A stretch of DNA of 64,000 bases from a virus. The translations under genes were made by a program, and so were the position numbers. Location: positions 1 through 64,000 of the IMG/VR virus record IMGVR_UViG_3300005573_000006. One strand, given 5' to 3'. The notes under the pieces were generated by a model, which saw only the letters and a list, made by a program, of their open reading frames with translations, was not told where the DNA came from and did no database searches. Position 1 is the stretch's first letter; each line of letters begins with the position of its first letter. Positions 51,802-55,060 of the stretch are shown one piece after another.

Positions 51802-52203
51802 ATGAAAAAGAAAAATAACAAATTTTTACCAAAAGGTAAAAAAACCCTGGCGGTCGATCTTGATGGGACAATAGCAAAAATAAATCCACTTGCAGGTATA
51901 ACAATAGGTAGCCCAATCAAAGAGGCTATTCCAATATTGAAAAAATTTAAAAGGGCCGGTTGGCAAATAATTCTCTATACCGTTAGGCCAGATGAATGGG
52001 TATTGCGAAAATGGTGTGACAAAAACTTCCCCAAAATATTTGATGCTATAAATTGTAATCCTGAAGATGTAAGACAATGGGGGATAGTCAGTGCTAAACC
52101 AAAAGCAACCATCTATTTAGACGATTGTGCATGGCCCAATAACGGTTTTTTTGATTGGAAAAAATTTAAAGAAGATGCAATAAAAAACAAATGGATAAAA
52201 TAA
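51802..52203 (+). CDS. HAD-superfamily hydrolase
   Basis: AVDLDGTIA, ILYTVR, KP.A..YLDD. Confidence 0.85.
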   Translation: MKKKNNKFLPKGKKTLAVDLDGTIAKINPLAGITIGSPIKEAIPILKKFKRAGWQIILYTVRPDEWVLRKWCDKNFPKIFDAINCNPEDVRQWGIVSAKPKATIYLDDCAWPNNGFFDWKKFKEDAIKNKWIK

Positions 52204-52637
52204 AAACGAATACAATATATTCAGGACATGTAATTGATGTCCTGCGAACTTTTCCTGATGAAAGTATTGATATGGTAATTACTTCTCCGCCATATTGGGG
52301 ATTACGCGTATATAAGGCCGGAGGCGTTATCTGGGATGGAGATAAAGAATGTAATCATGAATGGAGTAACAATGTTCTAGCAGGAGGAAGGGCCGGACGT
52401 CCGTGGGGAGATACGGGACTACATAAGATACAACAACAATCATGGGACCAAAAACAACTTTCTTTTCAGCATAAAGAAACCATGTCGGCTTTTTGTACTA
52501 AATGCAATGCATGGATTGGAGAACTTGGACTTGAACCGAGTTTTGAAGATCAAATATTTGAAATAGAAATAATGGAACCAAAAAAAGATCTGACCAAAGA
52601 AGATTTAGACATGCTTAAAAAAGAGCTTGGTTTTTGA
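52191..52637 (+). CDS. DNA N4-C/N6-A methyltransferase, N-terminal part (catalytic motif IV)
   Basis: PDESIDMVITSPPYWGLR.Y ... GELGLEP. Confidence 0.9.
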   Translation: MDKIKTNTIYSGHVIDVLRTFPDESIDMVITSPPYWGLRVYKAGGVIWDGDKECNHEWSNNVLAGGRAGRPWGDTGLHKIQQQSWDQKQLSFQHKETMSAFCTKCNAWIGELGLEPSFEDQIFEIEIMEPKKDLTKEDLDMLKKELGF

Positions 52638-52662
52638 TAATCTTTGTGATCTGATAGATAGC

Positions 52663-53484
52663 ATGAGTATAAAAAACATAGTAGAAAACAAAAGAAGATG
52701 GAGTAACCCAGAATATAAAAAAAGAGTTGGGAATAAGATTTCTAATACCTTGCGCGGAAGAAAAATGTCGGATGATACTAAACAAAAAATATCTAAAAAA
52801 TTAAAGGGAAGAAAAACATGGAAAACAAGGATAAGAATCCTAAAAGGAAAGGACCATCCAAACTGGAAAGGAGGAACAACACCACAACGACAACAAGAAT
52901 ATGCCACAGAATCTTATAAACTATTTGTTAATACCGTATTACAAAGGGATGATTATACTTGTCAAGAATGCGGGGCAAAAAACGGAAATGGTTATAATGT
53001 CAGACTTAATGTTCATCATATAAAATCATATGCCGAAAATCCAACATTAAGATTCGATATTAATAATGGAATAACGTTATGTTTCATTTGTCATAATAAA
53101 ACTAAATCAAAAACGCCAAAACCCAGTAGGATTGATAAAATATTGATTAAAAAAATATGCCAGAAATGCGGTGAGGAGTTTCAAAAAAGAAATCCCCAAA
53201 AATACTGTGATAAGTGTAAAGAAACAATATGTGAATATTGTGGCGAAACATTTATATCAAGAAATAGTAAAAGATATCAAAAGTTTTGTTCCCGAAAATG
53301 CTATGGTCAATGGTGGTCAAAAAACAAAGTAAAAGAAAATAACCCCCACTGGAAAGGGTATATTGAAAAAGATTGTATAAATTGTCTAAAAAAAATTAAA
53401 AGAAGGGATAACGAAATTTTAACAAATTATAATAAAAGAAAGTTTTGTTGTCTAAAATGTGCATATGATTATAGAAAAAAGTAA
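52663..53484 (+). mobile_element. HNH homing endonuclease (NUMOD3-like repeats, HNH, Zn fingers) inserted in the methyltransferase
   Basis: KISNTLRGR..S..TKQKISK, HPNWKGG, RDDYTCQECG, VHHIK, NGITLC..CH, FCSRKC. Confidence 0.9.
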
Positions 53485-54541
53485 AATACCTCAACATTTA
53501 TTAAAATACTTTCAGTTAAAAGAAAAGAAAAAAATAGTTCGTCGTGGTTATATTTCACATCTTTGTGACATTTTTGATGAAATAAAAAGAGTGTTAACCA
53601 AAGATGGAACTTGTTGGGTAAACATAGGAGACACTTATCAGTCCGCACCAGTTAGCGGTAAACAAGGTGGTTTTTCTGGTAAAGCAGCTAAAAATAATCC
53701 AGAATATGCCGAAGCAATATTAGTAAAAAAACCAAAAAGCAGACTTAAAAATAAAACACTTTTACAAATACCGGCCCGGTTTGCTATAGAAATGTGTAAT
53801 CGTGGATGGATACTAAGAAACGATTTGATCTGGAAAAAACCAAATATTCTTCCGAGTTCTGTCAAAGATAGATTCACGGTTGATTATGAACATATTTTCT
53901 TCTTCGTAAAAAATGAAAAGTATTATTTTGAACAACAATTTGAACCGTATGCTACATCTACAAAAAATGATAAAAGATTTGAAATAGCCAAAGAAGGAAA
54001 ATATACCGGCGGGACAAATGTAAAAAAAGGATATGAAGAAAGCAAAGCACAAAATCCCATTGAGGTTAGAAACAATGTATTTAATGCCGGACTTGGACAA
54101 GGAAGAAATATGCGAAGCGTATGGACTATAACAACTAAAGGGTTTCGGGGAGCCCATTTTGCCGTATATCCAGAGAAACTTATAGAAACACCAATAAAAG
54201 CAGGTTGTCCAGAACTTAGATGTTTAACATGCGGAAAACCACGAAAAAAGATAATAACAAACGAACATGTTGGTGGAACACCATATTATCCGCAACATAA
54301 ATGGCAAAAAGAAAATAATGTTGGCCCACGTCCAAGAGATTATATTGCTAAAAAAGAATTTTGCGGATACACAGACTGCGGACATAATAACTGGCGTAAA
54401 GGAATAGTATTAGACCCGTTTTTTGGATCGGGAACCACTGGAGTTGTGGCAGAAAAACTAAATAGGGATTGGATAGGTATAGAACTAAATAAAGAATTTA
54501 TTAATATAGCAGAAAAAAGAATAAATGAAGAAAGAAGATAA
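53465..54541 (+). CDS. DNA methyltransferase, C-terminal part (SAM-binding motif I)
   Basis: YISHLCDIFDEIKRVL..DGTCWVNIGDTY, GWILRN.LIW.KPN..P.SVKDR, HFAVYPEKL, VLDPFFGSGTT, GIELN. Confidence 0.92.
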   Translation: MIIEKSKIPQHLLKYFQLKEKKKIVRRGYISHLCDIFDEIKRVLTKDGTCWVNIGDTYQSAPVSGKQGGFSGKAAKNNPEYAEAILVKKPKSRLKNKTLLQIPARFAIEMCNRGWILRNDLIWKKPNILPSSVKDRFTVDYEHIFFFVKNEKYYFEQQFEPYATSTKNDKRFEIAKEGKYTGGTNVKKGYEESKAQNPIEVRNNVFNAGLGQGRNMRSVWTITTKGFRGAHFAVYPEKLIETPIKAGCPELRCLTCGKPRKKIITNEHVGGTPYYPQHKWQKENNVGPRPRDYIAKKEFCGYTDCGHNNWRKGIVLDPFFGSGTTGVVAEKLNRDWIGIELNKEFINIAEKRINEERR

Positions 54542-54625
54542 GGCATTTTGGTTATCAATATGGTTGCTTATAGGACTTTATGGTTCTGTTCTTTTAACCA
54601 TATTTATAATGAAAATATTACAAAA

Positions 54626-55060
54626 ATGACAAAATTTAAAATATACCCAGAAAAAGGAAACAAACAATATTATTCAGTAATAATATTTGACAAAAAAGCT
54701 GATATGATAAAATATTCATGTGCCATAACAAAAAGACCGTTACATCTATTTGAGGCAGTAGCACATTCATATTACGCTTATTATAAAAGAAACAAAAAAT
54801 ATATATTGTCAAAGCAAATAGGAAGTATACTGTTTTATAAAAACGGATTTGGAGTAGGAACCGTTGCCCATGAAATAGCTCACGCAACCAATTACTATTT
54901 TAATAGAAAAAAGATAAAATTTAGAATTGGTAATGTTATAAAACCAACAAAACAATGGTTTAAATATGATGAAGCATACGCCCATATTTTAGGATATATG
55001 ATAAATCAGTTTTGGAATAAATATAATGGTAAAGTAAAAACTAAATCAGAAAAATATTAA
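54626..55060 (+). CDS. zincin-like HExxH protein
   Basis: VAHEIAHA ... EAYAH..GY. Confidence 0.6.
   Translation: MTKFKIYPEKGNKQYYSVIIFDKKADMIKYSCAITKRPLHLFEAVAHSYYAYYKRNKKYILSKQIGSILFYKNGFGVGTVAHEIAHATNYYFNRKKIKFRIGNVIKPTKQWFKYDEAYAHILGYMINQFWNKYNGKVKTKSEKY

Follow-up and report, generated by a model that had tools for sequence, protein, structure and literature searches.

The window analyzed here (64,000 nucleotides [nt], positions 1 to 64,000 of the IMG/VR virus record IMGVR_UViG_3300005573_000006) encodes a putative DNA methyltransferase whose gene is split in two by a free-standing gene for an HNH-type homing endonuclease (52191–54541), and this stretch very probably represents one copy of a conserved cassette family that interrupts methyltransferase genes at many sites. 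Each end of the cassette codes for a short peptide: a tail appended to the C-terminus of the first methyltransferase fragment, and a head placed in front of the second. We consider it likely that the enzyme is made in two pieces and is reassembled by this cassette-borne clasp.

The split methyltransferase gene and its nuclease

The phage genome (91 kb, 33% G+C, from hot-spring metagenomes, with 2380 open reading frames [ORFs]) contains one copy apiece of the N-half, the HNH gene and the C-half, which lie on the same strand but in three different frames. The N-half ORF (52191–52637, + strand) encodes 148 amino acids (aa). Its codons 1–120 (52191–52550) form the methyltransferase N-extein, which carries motif IV (SPPY, 52284–52295) and a CxxC...CxxC insertion and aligns with intact relatives through ...LGLEPSFED. 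The remainder (52551–52637) specifies the tail, QIFEIEIMEPKKDLTKEDLDMLKKELGF, followed by a TGA stop; it is missing from 33 intact relatives and resembles, as a diverged member, the family pattern ..LRxDLTxEExxYVxxEL..GLL-stop. The C-half ORF runs on the + strand from 53459 (GTG) or 53465 (ATG) to 54541. It opens with the head (53459–53548), M-HMIIEKSK-IPQHLLKYF-QLKEKKKIVRRG, which is recognized by a hidden Markov model (HMM) of heads from other loci, and continues as the methyltransferase C-extein (53549–54541, from YISHLCDIFDE... to the stop), with motif I (DPFFGSG) at 54413–54433.

The C-half matches PF01555 in Pfam (E=5e-38), and PHROG 67 (DNA methyltransferase) matches both halves alike. 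Motif IV precedes motif I, and the closest solved chains are M.MboIIA (1g60), DpnA-type enzymes and CcrM (6pbd), on the basis of which the interrupted enzyme is predicted to be a beta-class N6A/N4C DNA methyltransferase (PF01555). ORF listing, Pfam and PHROG thus agree with the initial annotation that motifs IV and I lie in separate ORFs with an HNH ORF between them.

All 33 viral relatives that were fetched with the C-half possess a single uninterrupted gene reading ...LGLEPTF-x-x-Y[IV]xHLCDIFDE..., with no residues in between. Their similarity to the C-half begins exactly at its residue 31, Tyr, which places the junction at ...LGLEPSFED/YISHLCDIFDE..., within the GLEP...HL..IF segment to which the break had been assigned from the sequence. 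The insert accordingly spans 52551–53548 (998 nt, with a 1-nt [T] ambiguity), has cost the host no codons, and adds 28 residues to the first piece and 30 to the second (MHMIIEKSKIPQHLLKYFQLKEKKKIVRRG, counted from GTG 53459). In the AlphaFold2 model of L189, a relative in which the two parts are joined, the corresponding position lies in a loop that leads from a short strand (LG.E) to the subsequent long helix. Both halves retain all catalytic motifs, are free of stops and frameshifts, as had been claimed, and are 43–52% identical to intact relatives.

The three cistrons are tightly packed. The N-half stop is followed after only 25 nt (52638–52662) by the HNH ATG, and the first 20–26 nt of the C-half lie within the end of the HNH ORF, the same arrangement as first described. 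GTG 53459 is the likely start of the C-half because it gives the spacing seen in the family, with Met and 8 residues before the IP motif. Shine-Dalgarno sequences are found at only 3 of 58 genes of this phage, so their absence at these starts is uninformative.

The middle ORF (+ strand, from TTG 52627 or ATG 52663 to 53484) probably starts at ATG 52663 and yields a product of 273 aa. It matches PF01844 (E=4.7e-8; 33.5 bits against a cut-off of 21.4) as well as PHROG HNH families. It also contains NUMOD3-like repeats, with the NUMOD3 match falling just under the Pfam cut-off. The HNH core (HH at 53014, N..H at 53065–53097) comes with the zinc-binding Cys pair, and zinc ribbons are located at the C-terminus. 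Among solved chains, the HNH protein of GVE2 (5h0m) comes closest. The nucleases of other cassettes, encoded on either strand, are 36–48% identical to the product of the middle ORF. By these matches, the middle ORF is a predicted free-standing HNH homing-endonuclease gene that is intact.

A cassette family with fixed tail and head ends

The first sign of a wider family was that short relatives of the N-half are themselves N-fragments of methyltransferases with a similar tail, some of them cut elsewhere in the enzyme. The tail consensus is ..LRxDLTxEExxYVxxELxxxGLL-stop, and the head consensus is M-x-[IL]-x-L-x-K-x-x-IPxHLLKYFxP, with Met usually 8 residues before the IP motif. Seven viral contigs matched a degenerate DNA pattern written for L[KR]xDLTx5YVxxEL, and all seven encode methyltransferase N-fragments ending in ...LRDDLTxxExxYVxxELxxxGLL-stop. 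A looser DNA pattern identified 30 contigs; the tail motif was present in 27 of these, with methyltransferase N-fragments wherever the N-terminal part was readable.

An exhaustive search of 1.84 billion cluster representatives with a tail profile (cut-off E<=1e-3) returned 101 matches, comprising about 95 with the motif at the C-terminus, two with an internal motif, three that are spurious, and the window itself. In the C-terminal cases, the motif ends 5–16 residues (mostly 6–8) before the end of the protein, and the recognizable host proteins are all PF01555 methyltransferase N-fragments. The view that the tail is an ordinary methyltransferase segment was rejected, as only two of about 97 true matches are internal. 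The hosts fall into two subfamilies, an SPPYW-type and a DPPY...GSGFPK...KASxxER-type, and are cut at six sites or more: after SPPYFGLRSYLPDGV, LGLEPTxD (the site used in the window), LNLGSSY.., RFAIEMxNxxW, RNxRSVWT and KASxxERxxGL.

Within GTDB genomes the cassette is rare, being confined to a few contigs of metagenome-assembled genomes assigned to Alphaproteobacteria, Chloroflexi and Patescibacteria, and the cultured phages in INPHARED gave no tail match. A word-index search with the P0019 tail recovered P0019 itself and one near-identical protein only, and a looser motif expression that covers the tail of the window found no match in 486 kb of fetched loci translated in six frames.

Downstream of the tail, the head and the C-fragment follow after 600–1100 nt where a nuclease is present and after 43–78 nt where it is not. 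The intervening gene is an HNH gene on the sense strand in the window, L074, L084 and L097; a homologous HNH gene on the antisense strand in L072, L075, L077 and L078; and a gene for a DUF559/Vsr-like nuclease in L119. Nuclease-free loci include L076 (where GAGGAG precedes the ATG in a spacer of 14 nt), L121 and, similarly, the L165-type prophages, so that in these relatives the split and the tails persist without a nuclease. Re-fused forms, with tail and head in one chain, are rare (P0058, P0039, L145 and L189/L190). A search for the peptide pair in other split genes, as proposed in the initial annotation, produced about 95 clusters, with an HNH gene, with a DUF559/Vsr-like gene or with no nuclease at all. 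A comparison of nine tails gives identities of 0.59/0.81/0.40 at the three codon positions, which points to selection on the peptide and not on the RNA.

Judged from these comparisons, the tail and the head are the fixed ends of an apparently mobile cassette that occupies many sites in many methyltransferases. The initial annotation was right that both halves carry extra peptides, of 28 and 30 aa, but these were not gained at this insertion, having come as ready-made ends of the cassette.

The head of the window is clearly a family member by profile comparison: against an HMM of 24 heads from other loci it scores E=5.3e-7, while the next best among the 2380 ORFs of the genome scores 0.26, and its IPQHLLKYF is identical to that of L075. 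For the tail, the best local alignment to 91 independent tails (score 49, with P0113, ...LREDLTKEEREFVLKELGLL) is higher than in any of 500 composition-preserving shuffles (29.4 +/- 4.4), and so is the mean of its top-10 scores. The P0113 tail is its nearest relative. We read the window tail as a diverged member of the family.

Several further features concern the ends of the cassette and its surroundings. The linker after the head of the window (FQLKEKKK) is closest to that of the re-fused methylase L189 (contig JGI20214J51650_10002220; FKLKEKGK), which is cut at another site; this likeness fits movement of a cassette between sites. In L110, GRNIRNVWT.. is found on either side of the cassette, with about 10 host codons duplicated. 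The start of the tail, ELRDDL, resembles the ILRNDLIW segment of the enzyme itself, and at the site after RFAIEMxNxxW the tail start and the native segment occur together, on opposite sides of the cassette. The P..L.KYF of the head likewise resembles the native (HPT)VKPxxLxxYL helix of the second subfamily, and the cassette ends may be captured pieces of methyltransferases. P0048 and P0077 are tail-bearing N-fragments with an additional intein in the GSGFPK motif, which indicates that one methylase gene can hold several kinds of selfish element.

Proposed reassembly of the fragments and alternative explanations

The explanation that we favor is that a three-part cassette, in which a homing-endonuclease gene lies between one end that codes for the tail and another that codes for the head, was inserted precisely into the loop that joins the LGLEP strand to the long helix. 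The gene would now consist of three overlapping cistrons: the N-fragment with its 28-aa tail and stop, the HNH nuclease, and the C-fragment, which would be translated from the start supplied by the cassette and carry the 30-aa head. Neither RNA splicing nor protein splicing would be involved; instead, the N- and C-fragments would reassociate non-covalently into an active enzyme. The tail (a short strand and an amphipathic helix) and the head (a short strand and the IPxHLLKYF helix) would fold together as a small beta-alpha-beta-alpha pendant by which the halves are held or chaperoned. The nuclease presumably cleaves uninterrupted alleles and so spreads the cassette.

A two-polypeptide enzyme is the economical reading because the stops and starts are integral to the family, the split outlives the nuclease, and the halves keep all their motifs. 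That the two-piece methyltransferase is active is likely, and we are highly confident that its halves are not spliced. We infer that the halves associate and that the methyltransferase needs the peptides; whether the latter act as an assembly clasp is more finely balanced, with the evidence tipping slightly in its favor. A role of the window's tail as a nascent peptide or in translational bypass is unsupported, since the heads all bring a Met of their own at constant spacing.

The proposal in the initial annotation that the two peptides fold together gains support from their conservation at the protein level in independent cassettes, from their direct joining in P0058, P0039, L145 and L189, and from the confident fold of L189. 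For the latter prediction, the tails were left out of the alignment, as they had been put in wrong columns in two MAFFT alignments. In the AlphaFold2 model of this natural fusion, the module comprises strand 210–213, helix 219–232, strand 237–239, helix 245–250 and strand 251–255, with predicted local distance difference test (pLDDT) values of 75–91. It sits just before the core strand WILRRDIIW, and the split point falls in the loop at 233–236. The model therefore suggests that the tail provides the first strand-helix pair and the head the second of a beta-alpha-beta-alpha unit.

Several observations weigh against this account. The window tail has diverged: it is 4 residues shorter, reads ML where the family has YV, ends in EL-GF-stop where the family has EL-xxx-GLL-stop, and is not significant (3.4 bits) against an HMM of the 91 independent tails. 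The AlphaFold2 model of another fusion, P0058, made from a shallower alignment, gives the module pLDDT values of only 41–70. The stretch was found in just two DNA sequencing runs, its likely sources, with no RNA run listed, and a metagenome scan with the N-half revealed neither a close phage relative by which to date the insertion nor an empty-site allele. The contigs of the two DNA runs likewise held no empty-site allele and no nuclease-less form; two short "joints" in these runs have sides of 21–24 nt and are probably from other organisms. Finally, the tails of the split NrdA of phage Aeh1 are not needed for formation of the heterodimer itself but only for higher assembly (PMC3045599), so "clasp" may be too simple a term.

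This last result also lends some weight to the best of the alternatives, namely that the halves cooperate while the peptides serve otherwise, in shielding of the target, DNA binding (as a SAP/HeH-like helix pair), docking of the nuclease or translational coupling. The extra sequence of the T4 cassette protects against MobA (10.1101/2022.08.31.505936), the short stop-containing gaps in conserved motifs of relatives (see below) look like target-site shields, and confinement of the module to DNA methyltransferases in about 95 clusters hints at some connection with DNA or with this enzyme family. Shielding, however, requires a change in the DNA only and not conservation of second codon positions, the L189 fusion model shows the module as a single folded unit, and the module matches no Pfam DNA-binding family. 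We consider such other roles unlikely, if the least so of the alternatives.

The methyltransferase could instead have been killed by the nuclease insertion, its halves being a young pseudogene and the peptides idle in this phage. Phage methyltransferases are often dispensable, the window tail is the most diverged that we have seen, and only DNA sequence records exist for this phage. Against this stand the intact catalytic motifs and frames and the identity to intact relatives described above, the purifying selection on halves, tail and head across the cassette family, and the survival of the family as a two-gene unit after loss of the nuclease, all of which make a dead gene quite improbable.

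A group I intron with the HNH gene in a loop, joining the halves as RNA and leaving the peptides as intron sequence that is open by chance, would account for a precise insert that keeps all host codons, and its 998 nt are about the size of the T4 td intron. Flanking frames that stay open for some 30 codons in AT-rich DNA are not forbidden for an intron either. HNH genes are also known from phage group I introns (PMC3428280). Yet no Rfam intron model matched at E<=10 in 52000–54800, a result that is weak alone because the 820-nt ORF in the core could hide an intron, and outside that ORF there are only 113 and 64 nt. The splice-site bases are wrong as well: in the register 52551–53548 the insert ends in U, and in the register 52550–53547 it ends in G but the last exon base is A. 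Decisive are the comparative data on the cassette family, in which the flanks are conserved by codon and not by nucleotide, the Met lies at a fixed distance before the IP motif, the stop comes 5–16 (mostly 6–8) residues after the ..EL motif, and the same flanks accompany an antisense nuclease or a mere 14–31 nt from stop to start. The initial dismissal of an intron therefore holds, and we regard one as very improbable.

Least probable of all is ligation of the halves by protein trans-splicing, through a degenerate or very small split intein as in "fractured genes", with which the window shares the order of half, nuclease and half (PMC2677866), and for which many relatives cut at site A have Cys at the start of both tail and C-extein: tail and head together make up about 58 aa, well under a Hint fold (>=~130 aa), and lack intein blocks; the window tail begins with Gln and the C-extein with Tyr, and the terminal His-Asn is missing; sites B, C and D have no Cys, Ser or Thr at the junctions; the re-fused natural proteins retain the module within the mature sequence; and the three different frames leave no in-frame Hint domain. 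Frames, size and junction residues thus bear out the exclusion of an intein made at the outset.

Known systems and further features of the family

Known split genes offer close parallels to the two-piece methyltransferase. One is nrdA-a/mobE/nrdA-b of phage Aeh1, where, as here, an HNH gene splits an enzyme gene without an intron or intein and leaves tails on both pieces (Friedrich et al. 2007; PMC3045599). The mobE-derived tails of NrdA-a and NrdA-b proved essential for activity, and they were proposed as a general mechanism by which fragmentation is neutralized (Crona et al. 2011, PMC3045599). In Aeh1, however, the host gene is a different one and the tails are unrelated to ours, having been described as unique sequences born at that insertion, whereas the methyltransferase tail/head pair recurs in about 95 clusters, at six sites at least, in two subfamilies, with varied nucleases on either strand or with none.

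A second parallel is the MobA/Topo2L element (gene 39/mobA/gene 60), in which the split Topo2L bears conserved C- and N-terminal extensions and the nuclease can be swapped for VSR or GIY-YIG types or lost with the tails retained, with secondary fusion also on record (10.1101/2022.08.31.505936). In the cryo-EM structure of T4 topoisomerase II, the extensions, once joined, hang as a pendant off the TOPRIM fold and are not part of it (PMC11461880). Extensions on both pieces, replacement or loss of the nuclease, and secondary fusions all recur in the methyltransferase cassette. In contrast, MobA always occupies one site in one gene and is accompanied by a 50-nt translational bypass, whereas the cassette in the window has no bypass and its family uses many sites; the extensions are of 28 and 30 aa in the window, as opposed to ~44 and 44–45 aa in MobA. 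With both precedents published (PMC3045599; 10.1101/2022.08.31.505936), the suggestion that the window reveals a "third way" for a homing endonuclease to neutralize its insertion does not stand.

The fractured genes (Dassa et al. 2009, PMC2677866) share with the window the order of half, nuclease and half, and L119 has a similar Vsr/DUF559-like nuclease, but they contain true split-intein parts and their halves are ligated, while the window has neither a Hint fold nor splicing residues. The ShiLan domain is an HNH insertion within actinophage DNA methylases that likewise involves neither intron nor intein (Gosselin et al. 2023, PMC9957025; Arsenault et al. 2025, PMC11855218), and methylases are a hot spot for such elements. 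In ShiLan, the host frame stays open through the out-of-frame HNH insert, so that a single looped polypeptide is made; in the window, the frame stops at 52635–52637 and restarts, giving two polypeptides.

Our literature searches found no paper describing the methyltransferase cassette family, or one peptide pair that serves many sites, two subfamilies and several nucleases. The occurrence of a ~55-aa peptide pair in at least six positions, two subfamilies and the company of several nucleases suggests that selfish nucleases take an autonomous assembly module along with them. A mechanism proven only once, for the ribonucleotide reductase of Aeh1, would thereby be extended to a large family in nature and acquire a recognizable sequence signature. 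Gene callers will label such enzymes as truncated or hypothetical fragments, so phage methylation, and hence escape from host restriction, may be underestimated. The tail/head pair is also a candidate natural non-covalent split-protein tag.

A bolder proposal, which we put forward tentatively and consider rather doubtful, is that the pair is a portable, self-folding split mini-domain (beta-alpha plus beta-alpha) that forms the ends of different homing endonucleases and rescues a methyltransferase cut at almost any surface loop, in other words a general two-piece reassembly tag and not a host-specific patch, and that nuclease attack in the same gene family has in addition selected 7–8 nt stop-containing coding gaps in conserved motifs that need a ribosomal hop or shift.

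Gaps of this type were seen in two motifs of the relatives. In L116, L119, L153 and L164–L177, which belong to the second subfamily (e.g. L165 near 2112–2135), the head ORF M..IPxxLRxYFE...HPT stops after the Thr of HPTVKP, and VKPL... and motif I resume 7 nt further on (TGAGGCC, TAGCGCC, TGAAGCC, TAGAGCC, TAATGCC or TAGGGCC) in the +1 frame. All 16 pattern matches contain a stop and none of them TGG, in loci of 50% to 70% G+C. Ribosomes might shift to +1 at ACC-stop or hop 7 nt from ACC to GCC, which would restore HPTVKP; alternatively, the +1 frame may have a start of its own, or the genes may be dead. In L073 (866–898), L074 (7639–7671, − strand), L145 and L178–L183, otherwise intact methyltransferases stop after ...SPPYW, and GLRDY... 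resumes 7 nt on in the +1 frame. The sequence is TGG TRA A TGG GGN in 4 of 8 loci, with TGC in 3 and TGA in 1, and in L145 the gap between two TGG codons is of 8 nt. Matching take-off and landing codons at this gap suggest a short ribosomal hop, which resembles the logic of T4 gene 60 in shielding a nuclease target.

L073 (2013–2636, − strand) and L075 (2030–2665, − strand) also encode a second HNH protein antisense within the frame of the C-fragment, between ..PFSD and SHFAVFP, where the sense frame remains open over some 250 low-complexity codons, an antisense counterpart of the hidden HNH insertions of ShiLan type (PMC11855218). In the window, the split gene is flanked by an ORF of 133 aa with a DLDGT motif (51802–52203, + strand), which looks like a HAD-type phosphatase, and by an ORF of 170 aa with an HEIAH (HExxH) motif (54548–55060, + strand).

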